Positions 10,182 through 17,529 of a stretch of 43,594 nucleotides of DNA are shown here, piece by piece; positions within the stretch are counted from its first letter, which is position 1; every line of letters begins with the position of its first letter. The translations under genes and the position numbers were made by a program. Origin of the DNA: Kagunavirus PDP21P8. The DNA is taken from the sequence record OZ035783.1. One strand, given 5' to 3'. Below the pieces are notes generated by a model that made no database searches, was not told the DNA's origin, and saw nothing but the letters and a program-made list of their open reading frames with translations.

Positions 10182-10594
10182 TGGGCTACTTTGAGGACTT
10201 AACAAAAGCGTTCGACGTGCCGCTGGTAGCCTTCGGAACCGCCAACGGCATCAAGGTTGCGCTTGAAAATATCGACGCGCCGACGTCAACAGATACGCCG
10301 TATCTGGCGAGTTACATGTTACTGGCTGATACGGAACAGGCTGACTTATTCTTCACCGAGCAACGCTCTGGTATTTATCAGGTCGACATTAACTACGCAT
10401 CGGTGAAAGGTAGCGCGCCAATCAATAAAATGGCAGACTTACTTAACACGGCGTTTAAAGCAGGTAAGTCATTTTCGCGTAACGACATCTGCGCCGAGGT
10501 TCAATCGGTTAGCCTGGGGCCGCTGATTGTAGAAAACGGATGGGCCAAACGGCCATTGTCAATTAACTTTATTGCATTCACCAAGAGGCTGTGA
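10178..10594 (+). CDS. tail terminator/completion protein (putative)
   Basis: 138 aa ORF immediately upstream of the major tail gene. Confidence 0.4.
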   Translation: MMGYFEDLTKAFDVPLVAFGTANGIKVALENIDAPTSTDTPYLASYMLLADTEQADLFFTEQRSGIYQVDINYASVKGSAPINKMADLLNTAFKAGKSFSRNDICAEVQSVSLGPLIVENGWAKRPLSINFIAFTKRL

Positions 10595-11766
10595 ATATGG
10601 CTACAACTCCTTTTAAGGGCGCGAATACCGCGCAATTCTACGTGGCGGAAGTGACCCCGGGCGTAACACCGGCAAACCCGGTATGGTCGCCGTTGCGTAA
10701 CACTGGCGGCGTTCCTGCGGTAACCCGCGATGCGCTGACTTCCAACGAGCTGGACGGCAGCCGTGAAACTACATCCATCCGCACCGGCAACAAGCAGGTT
10801 AGCGGAGAATATGCTATCGAGCTTAGCTCCCGTAGCCAGGATGATTTCCTTGCGGGTGCTATGACTTCTACGTGGCAGGATGGGGTAACCTTATCCGCTG
10901 TCGGTATTACGGTAGACCCGGTAGCAAAAACTTTCACACGTGGCACTGGCAGTTTCATTACTGACGGTGTAGAGGTCGGGGACCTTCTGTATTTTGATGC
11001 TTTAACTGGCGATAACTCTAAGCCGTTCATCGTTACTGCCGTAACAGCTACTGTGGTTACTGGCGCAGGCATTCAGCACACCCTTACCGCCGAAGGCCCT
11101 ATTGAGACCGATGGAAAAACTGGCGATAAACTGGAAACAGGTAACGCATGTAAGACGTTCTCCATCCTGACATGGTTCAAAGGGCAGTGCGGGAACCCCG
11201 ACGCGTACATGTTGACCAAAGGCGTGGAAATCTCCGGTTTCACCATTGAACAGGCCGTAAACGCGATGGTGACAGGCAGCTTCCCGTTCATCGGCCTGAG
11301 TCAGGAGATTCTTTCCGCGCCGCCAGCAGGTTCCGACTTCTCTCAGGTCACATTCACTGACGAGCCGTTCTCTTCTGTAGATGTGTCCGTGTTCGACGGT
11401 TCTACCCCGTTGCGTTGCGATACTCTGACCATCACCAACGACAACGGTGCTTCCGCGCAGTTTGAACTTGGCAACAGTAGCGTTGCGTTCGTGGAACGTG
11501 GCCGCGCGGCTAACACCTTCTCCATCTCCGGTAAGCTGTACGACATGGCTATGATTCAGAAGTTTATCAACGAACAGCAGGTAGAGATTAACTCTATTCT
11601 GGCGGGGGTAAACGGAGCTATGTCTTTCAGTCTGAAACGTGCGGAACTTACGGCGGTCACACCAGAAATATCTGGCCCGGAATCAATTACCCAAAGTATA
11701 GAAGGGCAGTCCACAGGCAACCAGTATCAGTCGTCTATCGTAATTCAACGTATTAGTTACGTATAA
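10591..11766 (+). CDS. major tail protein
   Basis: 391 aa ORF followed by a strong terminator; position before chaperone/tape-measure genes. Confidence 0.55.
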   Translation: MNMATTPFKGANTAQFYVAEVTPGVTPANPVWSPLRNTGGVPAVTRDALTSNELDGSRETTSIRTGNKQVSGEYAIELSSRSQDDFLAGAMTSTWQDGVTLSAVGITVDPVAKTFTRGTGSFITDGVEVGDLLYFDALTGDNSKPFIVTAVTATVVTGAGIQHTLTAEGPIETDGKTGDKLETGNACKTFSILTWFKGQCGNPDAYMLTKGVEISGFTIEQAVNAMVTGSFPFIGLSQEILSAPPAGSDFSQVTFTDEPFSSVDVSVFDGSTPLRCDTLTITNDNGASAQFELGNSSVAFVERGRAANTFSISGKLYDMAMIQKFINEQQVEINSILAGVNGAMSFSLKRAELTAVTPEISGPESITQSIEGQSTGNQYQSSIVIQRISYV

Positions 11767-11873: not shown

Positions 11874-12506
11874 ATGTTTCTGTATGAAGAATTTGAAAAG
11901 ATACCCGCGTCAAAACGGGCGGTATCATACCGTAAAACAATCTGCGGTGTCGGTATCAACGACGCTGATTTTACCGCTAGTATTTTCAACGGCAAAAAGT
12001 CTGTTAATCACCCAGTATATGATATTTGGTATGCGATGATATTCAGGTGCTACCACGGGGTCGCCAAGCACCCAACATACGCAGGTGTGGTAGTGTGCGA
12101 AGACTGGCTATATTTCTCCAACTACTTTAAATGGTATAAAGATAATTACGTAGATTGTTGGCATGTAGACAAGGATTTACTTACAGATGCCAAAGAATAC
12201 TCACCGGAGACATGCATCTTTGTCCCAAGAGTTTTAAACAACTTCCTAACCGACAGCGCAGCGGCCAGAGGAAACCTACCAATAGGCCTTACTTATAGAA
12301 AAACAAACGGCAAGATACGGTGCCGTGTTAACAATCCCATAACCGGGGTACGGGAAAACTTAGGCGATTTTATTGACTTGGACGAAGCCATCAAGGCCAG
12401 AACGTTGCGGAAATTGGAAATAGCAGAAGAACTTAAGCCGCTTATGGATTCCATAGACGGGAGAATATGCCCAAGAGCCGTTTCGGTAATTAATTCACAA
12501 CGATAA
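11874..12506 (+). CDS. AP2-like DNA-binding domain protein, possible homing endonuclease
   Basis: C-terminal GLTYRKTNGKIRCRV...LGDFIDLDEAIKA resembles AP2 domain; gene is visibly AT-richer than flanks; no HNH motif identified. Confidence 0.35.
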   Translation: MFLYEEFEKIPASKRAVSYRKTICGVGINDADFTASIFNGKKSVNHPVYDIWYAMIFRCYHGVAKHPTYAGVVVCEDWLYFSNYFKWYKDNYVDCWHVDKDLLTDAKEYSPETCIFVPRVLNNFLTDSAAARGNLPIGLTYRKTNGKIRCRVNNPITGVRENLGDFIDLDEAIKARTLRKLEIAEELKPLMDSIDGRICPRAVSVINSQR

Positions 12507-12537: not shown

Positions 12538-12765
12538 CTAATCAATGTTACTCCTGTACTCCCGTAACTTTTCAAGACTTTCAATTGCTTCGTTAAGGTC
12601 CGTGTCTGCGTCCTTATGCCCTCTGCCACCCATGCATAACAGTTTCTTTAACGCGTGCTGTAACGCGGGGTCGTGGATAACGAAGGCCCTTAGCACATCA
12701 TAAACATCACATGTAATGGAATCGCCTGCGGTGTTGGTGAGTGTATGGTCATATTTTGAAGTCAT
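12538..12765 (-). CDS. small protein, DUF3310-like (tentative)
   Basis: 75 aa; pattern D-x-YDV...HALKKLL..GGRGHK..DL.EA resembles the DUF3310 phage family from memory; ATGA-coupled to upstream gene. Confidence 0.4.
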   Translation of the reverse strand: MTSKYDHTLTNTAGDSITCDVYDVLRAFVIHDPALQHALKKLLCMGGRGHKDADTDLNEAIESLEKLREYRSNID

Positions 12766-13892
12766 CCCAGCATCTCCGGTGAAATAGTTAAACGTGCGAC
12801 CTCGCCAAATTCGGCGCTATAAGTAATTACATTTGCACTACGGCCCGACATCCAACCTCCGCGGGAGGCGTAGGCGTCTTTAGCCGCTAAGGTGCGGTGT
12901 TGCTCAACAATCATGTTACGGCTTTCTACAATCTTCTGGTGGTGCAGATGGCCTACGTGGGCGTAGCTGTAAACACTCTCGCCGAACGCTTTACGGAACT
13001 TGGCAATCATAACAGGTTCAATAGCGTCGAATCGTGCTTTATGCCCGTGATGGAAGAACAGCGTCGTTTTGCCGTGTTGCACCATCTTGTAAACATCCGG
13101 TGACGTATCGACGAACACACGCGGCTCATTGTCATACAGCGTACTGAACATCTCAGCCAACCAAATCATGCCACTTTCGTCGTGATTCCCTTGCACGATA
13201 AGCAAGCGAACATTTTTATGCTTAACCAGCGCCATATCGACAACACGGCGGACCATGCGAATCATGTAGCGGACAAGTTTCTGGTAACGGGTGTCGGCGT
13301 CAAGGGCGTGACCGCTTGCAGGTGTAACGGCAACCAGACTATCGAAGTGCGCGAAGTCGCCCAGCAGGTTAATAACCCCAGTCCCCGCATCCGGTGCTTT
13401 CTGGAATGCCGCATCGAACCAACGGGAGAACAGGTCTTCTGCAATCTTCATATCCCAGTCGTCGCCACTCTCGTCGGCCCAGGCCAGCATACCGAGATGG
13501 AAATCAGACACAGTGTAAAGGTTGAGTAGCTTGTCGTCCCGTTTGGCGCGAACGGCTTTAACAGGAGCAACGGGGGTAATCTCCGACTTCATGCCCTCGA
13601 TTATGGCTTTCATCAACTCGACCTGACGTTCGGCATCGGTGTCGGTCTTAACCCATTGCAACTTAGTGTTGCCGAACTCATCAACCAGCGACGATGTGCC
13701 TTTAATCTTGTAGCCATCTGGTACAAGGTGGCTAACGTCACGCCCGTGGCCTACACCTTTCTTAGCCAGCTTCGCTTTACGGATACGAATAACTCGGTCT
13801 GAGATGCCGTATTTACGGGCGATGTCTACGTTCTTCATCCCGGCGTTCAATTCTTCCTGTAATTGTTCGTCGGTTATTTTCTTCCGGGCCAT
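12762..13892 (-). CDS. HTH-fused calcineurin-like metallophosphoesterase
   Basis: 376 aa; N-terminal HTH (DIARKYGISDRVIRIRKAK); motifs SDFH, LLGDFAHFD, QGNHDES, HHGH, GHLHH match the D-x-H / GD / GNH[DE] / GHxH metallophosphatase set; SD GAGGAAG. Confidence 0.7.
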   Translation of the reverse strand: MARKKITDEQLQEELNAGMKNVDIARKYGISDRVIRIRKAKLAKKGVGHGRDVSHLVPDGYKIKGTSSLVDEFGNTKLQWVKTDTDAERQVELMKAIIEGMKSEITPVAPVKAVRAKRDDKLLNLYTVSDFHLGMLAWADESGDDWDMKIAEDLFSRWFDAAFQKAPDAGTGVINLLGDFAHFDSLVAVTPASGHALDADTRYQKLVRYMIRMVRRVVDMALVKHKNVRLLIVQGNHDESGMIWLAEMFSTLYDNEPRVFVDTSPDVYKMVQHGKTTLFFHHGHKARFDAIEPVMIAKFRKAFGESVYSYAHVGHLHHQKIVESRNMIVEQHRTLAAKDAYASRGGWMSGRSANVITYSAEFGEVARLTISPEMLG

Positions 13893-13957
13893 GCTTACTT
13901 CCTCGTGTTTAGGATTTGTCCTATTTAACCACAGTGCATTCCTTTAAATAAAGGCGA

Positions 13958-14284
13958 CTATTTACTTTCTGCGCCTATTGCCCACCCAGTCATTACCATT
14001 TGCAGGCGGGTAGCGGTCAGTAGGCTGTAAAACGCGTCTCCGTTTTTCTCTACAGAACGTATTACCGTGTATGTTACGGCTTGCGGAGGCAGGCCCGATT
14101 TACCAACCTCTACGGCTGCCTCACACTCGCGAACGGTAGAGTCCTTAAATGCCTTTACAATAGTAGGGTCGGCTCTATCAAGCACACCAGAAGTCATAAG
14201 AACGGATTCACTAAACACCTGTTCACACGGAGACCCAAAAGTAGCAAAAGACATAAAACCAAGAGCTAACACTAATTTACGCAT
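13958..14284 (-). CDS. secreted protein (signal peptide, no lipobox)
   Basis: 108 aa; N-terminal MRKLVLALGFMSFATFG hydrophobic signal; two Cys; SD GAGGAA; first gene of antisense cassette. Confidence 0.5.
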   Translation of the reverse strand: MRKLVLALGFMSFATFGSPCEQVFSESVLMTSGVLDRADPTIVKAFKDSTVRECEAAVEVGKSGLPPQAVTYTVIRSVEKNGDAFYSLLTATRLQMVMTGWAIGAESK

Positions 14285-14309
14285 AATTATTTCCTCAGTA
14301 AGTTACAGG

Positions 14310-14341
14310 TGAATAGTACCCTATTATATTGGGGTGTGCAA
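14310..14341 (-). promoter_or_regulatory. early-type promoter with AATAG-N4-CTATT operator
   Basis: minus-strand reading TTGCAC-17 nt-TACTAT, nearly identical to promoter at 36243-36274; ends ~26 nt upstream of the ATG at 14284. Confidence 0.5.
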
Positions 14342-14448
14342 GTAGTGTGCTAGAATAAGTTTGCGCCTAGTGTCGCACACGAAAAGCGGGTGGTTCCCGT
14401 CTGGCGCGTCAACCTTAACCTGTAACCTCTTAACCAAAGGACTAAAGA

Positions 14449-14865
14449 ATGAAACTTTCTGATTTTTATTTTGCTGACCGCCATGCTGTAGGCACTAAAA
14501 TGCCTATCCTTCTGCCGAGTGGTAAAGACTCCGGTGAATGGTTGCAGGTCATTGGCCCAGATTGTGATGCTGGCGTTCGTGCGGGCCGCGCCTACACAAC
14601 GGCAATTCGACGCCTTACGGAAGAACTTGCGCCGTTAGATAAAGAGTGTGAGGCACTGAATAATTGGGCACGCTACAACGATGAGAAGGGTTGGCGGGTG
14701 ATGGACCTGAACAAGCAGCTTGCCGTGGAAATTGTCACCGGTTGGTCATTCGACGAACCGTTCAGCAAAGAGGCTCTGGCTAACCTGTTTGACCAATACA
14801 GTGGGCTGGCGGAGGCCGTAGTTAAGCATCACACCGACAGTCGCGAGAAACTCTCGGAAAAGTAA
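14449..14865 (+). CDS. tail assembly chaperone
   Basis: 138 aa ORF immediately upstream of the tape measure gene; followed by overlapping -1 frame ORF. Confidence 0.5.
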   Translation: MKLSDFYFADRHAVGTKMPILLPSGKDSGEWLQVIGPDCDAGVRAGRAYTTAIRRLTEELAPLDKECEALNNWARYNDEKGWRVMDLNKQLAVEIVTGWSFDEPFSKEALANLFDQYSGLAEAVVKHHTDSREKLSEK

Positions 14866-15227
14866 AAGCGCTGTATGAATTTGCGCAATGGTGCTTTGTC
14901 GACCGCCACAAACGTAAGCAATTCGACGACATAGCGGCAGGCCACCAGGCGGCTTTGATTGCAATGGGCGTGATTAAAGAACCGCAGATGAAAGAAGCGA
15001 CGGGGCCTGAATGCCCCGTTTCTCTTATCGACGTGTTCGAGAAATACCGTGCCATTAAATTCCTACAGCGCGAAACAGATGATACTATCGTTATAATCCC
15101 GCGCGATGCGCTCAAATGGCAAGATTTGGTAGCGTTTCGTGATGTCGCCGGTTACGGCATAAGTTTGTTCGAAGCCGAGGTTATCATGGGCTTAGACGGA
15201 ATATTTGAGGGCAGAGAAGATGGCTGA
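14826..15227 (+). CDS. tail assembly chaperone -1 frameshift extension
   Basis: -1 frame is open from 14826 (40 nt overlap with upstream ORF) with no ATG until 14964; candidate slip site G GAA AAG at 14856-14862. Confidence 0.4.
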   Translation, partial: ASHRQSRETLGKVKALYEFAQWCFVDRHKRKQFDDIAAGHQAALIAMGVIKEPQMKEATGPECPVSLIDVFEKYRAIKFLQRETDDTIVIIPRDALKWQDLVAFRDVAGYGISLFEAEVIMGLDGIFEGREDG

Positions 15228-17529
15228 TACGGCTTCCCTAATTGCCAGAGTAAAAACAGAAGGCGCTGATGTAGCCGCTAAACAGCTTGACGCTATGGCG
15301 GCATCCGCAGACCGTGCGGACACATCCGTAAACAAACTAACGCCGGATGTTAATAAAGTAAACTCCGCTACGTCTAAAGCGGCTTCTGACGGTTTCGCTA
15401 AATTCCGTAACGCCGCCGGGCAGGTAGGCTTCCAGGTGCAGGACATGGTCGTCCAGTTGCAGTCCGGCACGTCTGCATTCGTAGCAATCGGGCAACAAGG
15501 CTCTCAGCTTGCGGGTGCTTTCGGCCCTGGTGGCGCGGTGCTTGGGGCCGTAATTGCTCTTGCGTCAGCAATCGGTGGTGTCCTGTATAAATCGTTAACC
15601 GAAGCAGAAGGCAGTTCAAAAGACCTCGAAGCCGCACAGAAACAGCTAAAAGATACTTTCCAGCAAACGGCGTCCGGCTCTCTCGAACTGACAGACGGCC
15701 TTATCCAGCTTACCCAAATCAGCAGAGAAGCGGCGGAGACTCAGCTTGCTTTGGCTAAGGCTAACGCTGACCTTATCGCGCAGCAAACAGCTAAAGCCGT
15801 TCGTGAGGATGCAGAATCATGGGAGACATGGAAAGCATCCACGGCATCGGCTATCAGCCAGTATGACGCGCTGGTCTCTAAGGGCGCGGATGTAGGCGAC
15901 ACGTTAGAAAAACTAGGCGGCACTTACGAGGGTAATATCGTCGGCGTCAACATGCTGGCACAGAATATCGCAGAGCTTAGCAGTAAGTTTGGGGTTAACC
16001 GTGACCAGGCGCTGGAGATGATAGCGGCGCAGAGTGCGTTTAACAAAGAGCCAACCGCCGAGAATGCCCGTCGCATCGCCGATGTGTTTACCGACTGGCT
16101 CGGTAATACAAAACAGTTGAACCCGGAACTTATCCGCCTGACCGACAATGCCAACAAGAACGCCACGGCACTGGAGAACGCGGAGAAGTCCGCAAACGCG
16201 GCGGCGGAGGCCCAAAAGAATCTTGGTCGTAACGTCAACTCAACAACGCAGAGATTCCAGGAACAGAACGAAGCTATCGTCAAAAACCAGCAAATCGCTA
16301 TCTTAAGTGACCGCGAGCGTATCCGTGCGCAAGCTGAACTGGATAAGCAGGCGTTCGCTAAACGTGAAGCTGTCACCAAAGAACAGATCGCCGCGTATAA
16401 TGCTGCGCGTGACACGGAAGCACAACAAGACATCGCTCGCATCGACGCTACCGAAAAAGCGAAGGCCGACCGCGAGGCCAAATCGAACGAGAAACGGCTG
16501 GCGGCACAAGCCAAACGCGAAGAAACGGCGGCTGAACGACAGAAAAAAGCGGCGGAAGATTTCCTGGCTACTGTCGACCGCACAACCGGAGATGAGATTT
16601 CGCGCATTACCGCTGCGGAAGAGCAGAAACTGGCAAAACTGGAAGAGTTTAACAGAGCTGGGACTATAAGCCAGCAGCAATACGAAAACGCCAGGACGCA
16701 GATTATGCTCTCGGCCGAACAGGCCCGCCAGGAAGAACTCGCCAAGCGAGAGAAAGAACGACAGGAGAAGAACCAGAAAGGCGAAGACTTCATGGCTCAG
16801 ATTATGGGCCAAAACGCCGCTGAGCTTGAGCTTCTGGAGATTCAGGAGCAACAAAAACTGGACGTTGCTGACAGGTATCGCGAACAGAATCTGATTAACG
16901 AAGAACAGTACCAGGCCGCGGTTAATGCTATAAATGACCAGTACGCGTTAAAACGTGCTAACGCAACGGGTAACGCTTTTGGCATGATGGCGGATAATAT
17001 TAAATCGTCGCTTGGCGAAGCGTCTACTGCGTACAAAGCTTTCGCTATTGCGCAGGCCACTATTGCCACATACACCTCCGCTATAGAGGCTTATAAATCT
17101 GCATCGGCTATCCCTATTGTTGGATGGGTGCTCGGGCCTGTAGCCGCCGCCGCCGCCGTAGCCGCGGGGCTCGCAAACATTGGCAAAATTCGTTCGGCCC
17201 GTGAGCAGGGCGGTAACTTAGCTGCAGGTCAGTTATCTACTATCGCGGAACGTAACAAGCCAGAAGTTATTATGCCTGCAGGGGCGTCACGCGTCCGTAC
17301 CGCAGAACAGATGCGCCAGATTATGGGCGAGAACGGCAACAAGTCAGGCGGTGACAGCGTTACAATCGTCAACAACACCACCGGACGTGTTGATTCCGCC
17401 GTTACAGAGCGTGACGACGAAGGGCGGTTACGTGTTATCATCAGCGAAACAGTATCGGCGGCGTTACAAGACAGCAACAGTGCAATCTCTAAGTCACGCC
17501 GTGCTACACGAAACCAGCCGGGGTATTAA
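15220..17529 (+). CDS. tape measure protein
   Basis: ~770 aa, Ala/Gln/Glu/Lys-rich coiled-coil repeats, Gly-rich hydrophobic segment near C-terminus; ATG 15220. Confidence 0.8.
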   Translation: MADTASLIARVKTEGADVAAKQLDAMAASADRADTSVNKLTPDVNKVNSATSKAASDGFAKFRNAAGQVGFQVQDMVVQLQSGTSAFVAIGQQGSQLAGAFGPGGAVLGAVIALASAIGGVLYKSLTEAEGSSKDLEAAQKQLKDTFQQTASGSLELTDGLIQLTQISREAAETQLALAKANADLIAQQTAKAVREDAESWETWKASTASAISQYDALVSKGADVGDTLEKLGGTYEGNIVGVNMLAQNIAELSSKFGVNRDQALEMIAAQSAFNKEPTAENARRIADVFTDWLGNTKQLNPELIRLTDNANKNATALENAEKSANAAAEAQKNLGRNVNSTTQRFQEQNEAIVKNQQIAILSDRERIRAQAELDKQAFAKREAVTKEQIAAYNAARDTEAQQDIARIDATEKAKADREAKSNEKRLAAQAKREETAAERQKKAAEDFLATVDRTTGDEISRITAAEEQKLAKLEEFNRAGTISQQQYENARTQIMLSAEQARQEELAKREKERQEKNQKGEDFMAQIMGQNAAELELLEIQEQQKLDVADRYREQNLINEEQYQAAVNAINDQYALKRANATGNAFGMMADNIKSSLGEASTAYKAFAIAQATIATYTSAIEAYKSASAIPIVGWVLGPVAAAAAVAAGLANIGKIRSAREQGGNLAAGQLSTIAERNKPEVIMPAGASRVRTAEQMRQIMGENGNKSGGDSVTIVNNTTGRVDSAVTERDDEGRLRVIISETVSAALQDSNSAISKSRRATRNQPGY

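Follow-up and report, generated by a model that had tools for sequence, protein, structure and literature searches.

A probable -1 ribosomal frameshift where the tail-assembly-chaperone gene ends in a K1H-like Kagunavirus

Does translation of the tail chaperone region of Kagunavirus PDP21P8 (sequence record OZ035783.1) yield two separate proteins, or does it pass from one reading frame into the next to make a fusion? The question is raised by two overlapping open reading frames (ORFs) that lie upstream of the tape measure protein gene, the second of them in the -1 frame relative to the first. The locus was analyzed within the whole 43,594-nucleotide stretch of DNA of that record, which is called the window here. 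Over positions 14300-15400, the window is 94-97.5% identical to more than 30 complete Escherichia coli Kagunavirus (Guernseyvirinae) genomes, including K1H, L AB-2017, fFiEco02, and several BASEL phages; its identity to many GenBank records is 96-97%, and by these measures it is a K1H-like E. coli siphophage genome of the genus Kagunavirus. Based on the gene layout, protein families, and conservation described below, a programmed shift of ribosomes into the -1 frame where the tail-assembly-chaperone gene ends is very likely; that the fusion product is made, how often ribosomes shift, and by which sub-mechanism are what we infer from these data.

Two reading frames upstream of the tape measure gene

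The frame-0 ORF (ORF1, 14449..14865, + strand) starts with ATG at 14449, closes with the codons CTC TCG GAA AAG TAA, and encodes a G-like chaperone of 138 amino acids (15.6 kDa), close in size to the 140 amino acids of phage lambda G. Its stop codon, TAA, occupies 14863..14865 on the + strand. In the -1 frame, a TAA at 14823-14825 is followed by an open stretch that begins at 14826 and runs to the TGA at 15225-15227. The earliest canonical starts in this frame are TTG 14955 and ATG 14964, with no ATG, GTG, or TTG before +92, and CTG 14871 is the sole near-cognate start upstream of TTG 14955. An original prediction, made from the letters of the window alone, had described ORF1 as ending at TAA and the -1 frame as open from 14826 through 15227 without an ATG before 14964, and both descriptions agree with our reading of the sequence. 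The T-like extension that a shift would add (14862..15227, + strand) consists of 121 codons plus the TGA stop. A shift on the final AAG codon of ORF1 would give a fusion of 259 amino acids with a computed mass of 29.3 kDa; the mass of ∼28 kDa proposed for it in the original prediction was slightly low. The A-site codon after the shift is GTA (14862-14864), and the junction peptide reads ...LSEK-VKALYEF..., or, written across the shift, ...EKLSEK|VKALYEFAQWCFVDR.

The -1 extension leads directly into the tape measure protein gene (15220..17529, + strand; phrog_1538, E 1.6e-189), the start of which agrees with the annotation in relatives. The ATG of this gene at 15220 overlaps the stop codon of the extension as ATGGCTGA (15220-15227), and at the T/H junction of lambda (L062, 943-950) the T stop overlaps the H start in the identical 8-mer. 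The locus therefore has the layout of the lambda G/GT class, in which two overlapping ORFs, the second in the -1 frame, encode G-like and GT-like products directly upstream of the tape measure gene. One criterion for this class (Xu, Hendrix & Duda 2004) is that both products are made in a fixed ratio, are needed for tail assembly, and are absent from the virion. In lambda, the ratio of G to GT is ∼30:1, the T domain is made only as part of the gpGT fusion, and the G part binds the tape measure protein (PMC5009743, which cites for the work on gpG and gpGT Levin, Hendrix & Casjens 1993 and Xu, Hendrix & Duda 2004, 2013, and 2014).

Both halves of the putative fusion are, by their profile matches, members of tail-assembly-chaperone families. 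Residues 81-130 of the fusion match PF08748 Phage_TAC_4 (34.5 bits; cut-off 21.1), and residues 170-254 (14955-15209) match PF23812 Phage_TAC_18 (62.6 bits; cut-off 27), both scores exceeding the curated Pfam cut-offs. The phrog_15027 family, a "tail assembly chaperone" of 259 positions, is covered by ORF1 at positions 1-138 and by the -1 translation at positions 128-259; its profile was evidently built from already-fused proteins. The prediction that the -1 frame encodes a plausible protein is upheld by the Phage_TAC_18 match and by the conservation of this frame among relatives. No sequence similarity of the window chaperones to lambda G or T was detected.

An AlphaFold2 model of ORF1, made from an alignment of 18 homologues, has a predicted local distance difference test (pLDDT) score of 92. 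Fold matches of this model in BFVD are to annotated tape-measure chaperones, with E values from 5.9e-9 to 1e-3, and include those of phages Seurat, Sansa, CcrColossus, Scapp, and Suba; the model also matches, at 99% identity, the 259-amino acid "Tail assembly chaperone [phage K1H]" (UniProt D2XJD7). In the PDB, the fold match of the ORF1 model to the HK97 chaperone 2OB9 is weak (E 0.76; template modeling score 0.34-0.41), and a sequence search gave no meaningful match. AlphaFold of the 259-amino acid fusion without an alignment (pLDDT 35) gave no usable fold for the T domain or the linker. When a large protein database was searched with the fusion, only homologues of the G half (at most 65% identity) were found, and no fused or single-frame versions.

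Conservation of the end of ORF1 among relatives

The end of ORF1 was compared across 51 loci from IMG/VR (ORF1 42-100% identical in amino acid sequence) and 9 loci from GenBank, among them those of K1G, K1H, SETP3, SE2, Schulenburg, Shashou, Bas76, and fFiEco02; codon counts at the site were taken over 28 non-redundant representatives. In every locus with a readable ORF1 end, ∼60 relatives in all, the gene closes with N_NNA_AAG followed by TAA or TAG, the sole exception to the adjacency of motif and stop being L025. The last sense codon is AAG in 28 of the 28 representatives, whereas AAG makes up 42% of the lysine codons elsewhere in these genes, and the penultimate codon is always NNA (GAA in 17, GCA in 7, GTA in 2, and TCA and AAA in 1 each) while specifying five amino acids. 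Columns -4 to -1 are invariant throughout the representatives. This regularity goes far beyond chance. The joint chance of the AAG and NNA invariance is ∼1e-22 by a naive estimate that overstates independence, and at least five different penultimate codons obey the rule. The stop codon of ORF1 is TAG in 18 representatives and TAA in 10, and never TGA.

Across these relatives, the conserved signal is the A_AAG tetramer (or NNA_AAG hexamer) abutting a stop codon, and not an X_XXY_YYZ heptamer. The original prediction had pointed to the heptamer G_GAA_AAG, one base away from the lambda slip site. It is present in the window (14856..14862, + strand, adjoining the ORF1 stop), but the relatives carry G_GAA_AAG, C_GCA_AAG, A_GCA_AAG, G_GTA_AAG, G_TCA_AAG, or A_AAA_AAG at this place, and so a lambda-like heptamer is not the conserved element; only A_AAG (14859..14862, + strand) and the stop are invariant. 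In lambda itself, a direct reading of the locus places the canonical G_GGA_AAG five codons ahead of the G stop, whereas G_GAA_AAG in the window adjoins the stop and, unlike in lambda, the first codon of the heptamer varies among relatives.

In all loci, the -1 frame stays open over the next 356-365 nucleotides downstream and the +1 frame soon closes; in the window, the +1 frame was rejected as a continuation because it closes 13 nucleotides past the ORF1 stop and is rich in stop codons. Information per alignment column changes register at the proposed site. Upstream, as far as -7, the first, second, and third positions of frame 0 hold 0.97, 1.13, and 0.41 bits, and from +5 to +100 the corresponding positions of the -1 frame hold 1.33, 1.41, and 0.64 bits, so that the wobble periodicity changes over to the -1 frame. 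The loci L039 and L041 have a -1 stop immediately before the heptamer, which leaves just 7 nucleotides of open -1 frame ahead of the ORF1 stop; in these loci the frame change is therefore confined to C_GCA_AAG, and upstream sites are excluded. In the window, no other slip site with -1 re-pairing potential was found within the 40-nucleotide overlap.

The 34 residues that follow the proposed shift (VKALYEFAQWCFVDRHKRKQFDDIAAGHQAALIA) are the best-conserved stretch, with a mean pairwise identity of 62%, compared with 54% for ORF1 and 36% for the 36 residues that come after them, and this stretch sits upstream of any conserved start codon. Three lineages (L034, L035, and L043) have no ATG, GTG, or TTG in the first 60 codons (180 nucleotides) of the -1 frame. 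Taken together, these alignments show that the -1 frame is conserved as a continuation of ORF1 from A_AAG onward. The opposite view, that no recoding takes place and that the two frames reflect a sequencing or assembly indel in one gene or a decaying downstream remnant, has nothing specific in its favor, being the generic null for adjacent ORFs in different frames. The same frame arrangement is found in ∼60 independently sequenced loci from both isolates and metagenomes, and the -1 ORF is under purifying selection, has the right codon periodicity, and matches a Pfam domain; by this recurrence and periodicity, the view is effectively refuted.

Two relatives depart from the common pattern. The locus L025 (IMGVR_UViG_2162886012_000023, ∼2421-2435) reads A_AAG_TTA_TAG, in the register that is AAG_TAG_NNG elsewhere, and has the only non-adjacent stop. 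In L058 (Serratia phage Opt-155, NC_074758, ∼1300-1335; 30% identity), the -1 overlap is present and A_AAG with its stop is absent; this locus carries C_CGA_AAG, a hexamer of the type found in Bacillus subtilis cdd and in IS1222, two codons ahead of the stop, and GCA_AAA further upstream.

Alternatives and a possible mechanism for the frame change

Several observations weigh against a frameshift at this site. The motif is not of the canonical X_XXY_YYZ type, the P-site codon in the -1 frame being GGA in the window, and only L026/L027 (A_AAA_AAG) are canonical in this sense. A_AAG without a stimulator gave 0.147% shifting in reporter assays against a background of 0.112% (PMC4066793), and shift efficiency could be very low here unless the adjacent stop or the nearby GCGCTG helps. 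The original prediction had suggested looking for a downstream stimulatory structure, and none came to light: RNAalifold detected no conserved downstream helix in six windows from -40 to +130 over 25 representatives (energy ∼0), and single-sequence folds around the site showed no unusual stability (z from -0.75 to +2.1; +0.77 for 14863-14962). A scan for anti-Shine-Dalgarno duplexes found no upstream Shine-Dalgarno (SD)-like stimulator, the best duplex being an unexceptional -3.5 kcal/mol, and an Rfam scan of 14280-15300 at E ≤ 10 returned no frameshift element, only an int-alpA-like leader that is described below. The locus thus has neither the 3' structure 5-9 nucleotides downstream nor the SD-like element ∼10 nucleotides upstream that mark stimulated -1 cassettes of the dnaX and IS3/IS911 type. 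Many GenBank records annotate two genes at this locus, and the announcement of phage Shashou (PMC6776780) reports no canonical slippery sequence. Lastly, periodicity alone cannot distinguish between a shift at 14862 and a start at CTG 14871, as the codon that separates them varies.

If the second ORF were instead a separate gene, translated by independent initiation or by termination-reinitiation, its candidate starts would be a conserved YTG 6 nucleotides past the stop (CTG 14871 in the window), TTG 14955, or ATG 14964. The YTG, at +8, is conserved in all loci; it is called as a CTG start in BASEL phage Bas76 and as a TTG start in SE2, Schulenburg, and Shashou. GGAA/AGGA of the "heptamer" would serve as a weak SD sequence, and the annotators of Shashou and Schulenburg placed the ribosome-binding site on AGGA within the heptamer. 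As a start codon, however, it would be CTG, a very poor initiator, in 25 of the 28 representatives, the window included, and no lineage has moved it to ATG or GTG, while the lineages with C_GCA_AAG and A_GCA_AAG have no SD-like sequence. A start at 14955 or 14964 would drop 31-34 of the best-conserved residues, and those starts are absent in several lineages. Independent initiation also leaves unexplained why AAG is invariant (never AAA) and preceded by NNA across five amino acids, and why the Ala codon just 5' of the YTG is conserved. Lambda, moreover, produces its T domain solely within the gpGT fusion (PMC5009743). Weighing both sides, we consider separate translation of the second ORF unlikely.

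The conserved Ala codon and YTG form GCGCTG (Ala-Leu in the -1 frame; 14868..14873, + strand), 5 nucleotides past the shift tetramer. This hexanucleotide is invariant, both wobble bases included, in 25 representatives and is GCGTTG in SE2, Schulenburg, and Shashou, whereas in the remaining conserved codons for Ala and Leu the wobble position holds just 0.15-0.45 bits of information. No conserved pairing partner for GCGCTG was found; a long-range GCGCUG/CAGCGY pairing exists in four lineages only, and not in the window.

A different route to the same fusion would be transcriptional slippage, in which RNA polymerase adds or omits an A in GGAAAAG so that some mRNAs join both ORFs in frame. Such slippage is a known alternative way of making fusions of this kind, as PMC5009743 mentions, and the A_AAA_AAG of L026/L027 includes a run of 7 A residues. 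The run is 4 A residues long in the window and 3 in the lineages with GCA, GTA, or TCA. Bacterial RNA polymerase needs a homopolymer of ∼8-9 nucleotides for appreciable slippage, a length that these runs fall far short of, and neither the invariant G after the A residues nor the adjacent stop would be explained by it. Slippage by the polymerase is therefore a very remote prospect, even more so than a separate start.

The preferred explanation, a programmed -1 ribosomal frameshift, would work as follows. Most ribosomes would terminate at TAA 14863 and release the 138-amino acid G-like chaperone, and a minority would slip one base back on A_AAG (14859-14862), where host tRNA-Lys would leave AAG and re-pair with AAA. 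These ribosomes would then read GTA AAA GCG CTG and onward to TGA 15225, giving the 259-amino acid G-T fusion. No tRNA genes were found in the window, and therefore the site would be decoded by the tRNA-Lys of the host, which in E. coli is a single isoacceptor for AAA and AAG (PMC5009743). By analogy with gpG and gpGT of lambda, binding of the tape measure protein would fall to the N-terminal part common to both forms, and recruitment of the tail tube protein to the part encoded in the -1 frame, with a low shift frequency setting the ratio of the short to the long form.

The window site is of the tetramer (Z_ZZN) or NNA_AAG type, as tRNA-Lys can re-pair by cognate pairing on AAA at 14859-14862. 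Among tetramers tested in E. coli, A_AAG proved the most prone to shifting (PMC4066793), and B. subtilis cdd and IS1222 make use of NNA_AAG hexamers (PMC5009743). The window site has in common with cdd (A_CGA_AAG) and IS1222 (G_CGA_AAG) that no slippery element other than A_AAG is conserved (for those sites, Licznar 2003 and Sharma 2014, as relayed by PMC5009743 and PMC4066793). Shifting at those two sites relies on a stimulator, either an SD-like element or a pseudoknot, and neither was found in the window; a stop that always abuts the tetramer is a feature here and not of cdd or IS1222 as described (PMC5009743, PMC4066793). In E. coli dnaX, the site A_AAA_AAG involves the same re-pairing of tRNA-Lys from AAG to AAA, and L026/L027 use exactly this heptamer. 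Shifting at dnaX reaches ∼50%, with an SD-like element upstream and a strong hairpin on the 3' side; elements of the dnaX type, SD-like or hairpin, were not found in the window.

Two sub-mechanisms may be considered for the shift. In the one we prefer, TAA 14863-14865, directly 3' of the shift tetramer, would act as a "shifty stop": with the A site filled by a stop codon that is decoded slowly, the peptidyl-tRNA-Lys in the P site would slip to AAA, after which Val-tRNA would read GUA. The adjacent stop is given this role because, in reporters, shifting on A_AAG hardly exceeds background when no stimulator is present. L025 bears on this model, as it indicates that stop adjacency is not absolutely required; the slow A-site codon TTA, a relatively rare Leu codon, may replace the stop in that locus. 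In the alternative, the NNA_AAG hexamer mode, tRNA-Lys would slip in the A site, and the P-site tRNA would need little re-pairing. P-site re-pairing appears dispensable because tRNA-Ala cannot re-pair on CGC in C_GCA_AAG. GCA, GUA, and UCA are read by broad-wobble cmo5U34 tRNAs, and for this reason the GCA, GTA, and TCA 5' codons fit the wobble rule for such hexamers. By this rule, a greater wobble propensity of the NNA-reading tRNA leads to more shifting (PMC5009743).

As a tentative extension to the whole group, which we put forward as less probable than not, the signal might be a minimal, structure-free cassette, A_AAG_UAR, in which a stop codon read by RF1 (UAA or UAG, never UGA) is the stimulator and a single peptidyl-tRNA-Lys slips in the P site, perhaps aided by the invariant linear GCG-YUG 5 nucleotides downstream, the wobble bases of which are fixed without any coding reason. 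If this were true, "shifty stop" sites of the -1 kind, met mostly in synthetic constructs, would have a natural and deeply conserved example in this locus, and the cassette would account for the annotators' statement that these phages have "no canonical slippery sequence."

Within the -1 extension, over conserved GPECP codons, lies a terminator-like hairpin (14999-15020, + strand; GACGGGGCC-TGAATG-CCCCGTT, 8 pairs of which 6 are GC, then TCTCTTATCG). Because it is 134 nucleotides past the site, it is too far away to be a shift stimulator.

Surroundings, annotation, and significance

The tail tube gene (10591-11766, + strand; PF18906) lies upstream of the chaperone genes, and the order tube, chaperone, and tape measure is kept in one orientation. 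Unlike in lambda, 2.7 kb separate the tube and chaperone genes, and the canonical adjacency of tube, G, GT, and tape measure is broken because an HNH endonuclease gene (11874-12506, + strand) and a block of reverse-strand genes (12538-14284, - strand) intervene. The reverse-strand block includes an exonuclease/phosphoesterase gene (12762-13892, - strand) and a small ORF (13958-14284, - strand), the positional counterpart of which carries a superinfection immunity annotation in SETP3, SE2, Schulenburg, and Shashou.

A separate leader belongs to the chaperone operon. A structured, int-alpA-like RNA (14363-14407, + strand; with flanks, 14348-14448) lies just upstream of the chaperone ATG and consists of an outer stem (GCGCC/GGCGC), a hairpin (GUGU-CGC-ACAC), a GAAAA linker, and a second hairpin (GCGGG-UGGUU-CCCGU) with an invariant UGGUU loop. 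The sequences of the window, K1G, L048, and L014 match Rfam int-alpA (RF02996) at 27.7-31.8 bits, below the gathering score of 35.8 bits, and the leader is recognizable in 44 related loci. Among 19 distinct leader sequences, 12 of the 17 pairs show double-sided changes, and the covariation score of 0.46 compares with 0.16 for shuffled alignments (0 of 500 reach 0.46) and at most 0.14 for slid controls. An extended -10-like box, TGcTAGAAT (14348-14356, + strand), of which TAGAAT(AA) is conserved in most relatives, ends ∼7 nucleotides ahead of the first base of the outer stem. This spacing would place the leader at the very 5' end of the transcript, so that it is probably the 5'-terminal structure of the chaperone and tape-measure mRNA. 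A simple promoter scan did not list TGcTAGAAT and listed 14302-14330 instead. The leader is unrelated to the frameshift.

Related phages differ in how this locus is annotated. In K1H (ORF19A/ORF19B, GU196278/NC_027994), the same locus is 93.9% identical in DNA over 14300-15400 and 99.3% identical in ORF1, and other Kagunavirus records reach up to 97.5% DNA identity over that interval. The records of K1G (ORF22A/ORF22B, GU196277), K1H (also in RefSeq), and fFiEco02 (FE2_025/026, "frameshift product") carry the same joined coding sequence (CDS) of 779 nucleotides, translated into 259 amino acids, with no substantive difference from the window; the K1H product is UniProt D2XJD7. In these three records we found no experimental evidence for, or discussion of, the shift motif. 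The chaperone of K1G (L055) is 50.7% identical to that of the window and that of K1H 99.3%, which suggests that members of the genus have exchanged the chaperone/tape-measure module in mosaic fashion, as judged from these sequences.

Two separate genes are annotated in SETP3 (NC_009232), SE2 (NC_016763), Bas76 (PQ850632), Schulenburg, and Shashou (MK931438, MK931440), where the second half appears either as a CDS of its own that starts with CTG or TTG or as a shorter ORF. Many records of the group, those of recent curated collections among them, call the second half a separate "hypothetical protein" or a gene initiated at CTG or TTG. Shashou carries G_GAA_AAG TAG, despite the statement in its announcement that there is no canonical slippery sequence (PMC6776780). 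In total, 502 GenBank records from Kagunavirus, Jerseyvirus, and allies hold the gene. No open-access paper on the conserved A_AAG and stop motif and no literature on Kagunavirus frameshifting were found, and for Jerseyvirinae frameshifting only the Shashou announcement (PMC6776780) was found.

The placement of a chaperone frameshift upstream of the tape measure gene, as originally predicted, is thus supported by the chaperone families of both halves, by the switch in periodicity, and by the joined CDS of K1G, K1H, and fFiEco02. The frameshift is already known at the level of annotation, the phenomenon itself is textbook, and the finding leaves knowledge of tail assembly and of recoding unchanged. 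What it offers to this group of phages is a single conserved site, NNA_AAG followed by TAR, that is usable for consistent annotation. It would also be a modest natural example of tetramer or hexamer -1 shifting without a detectable RNA structure, and the locus could serve to test stop-codon stimulation of -1 slippage in vivo.

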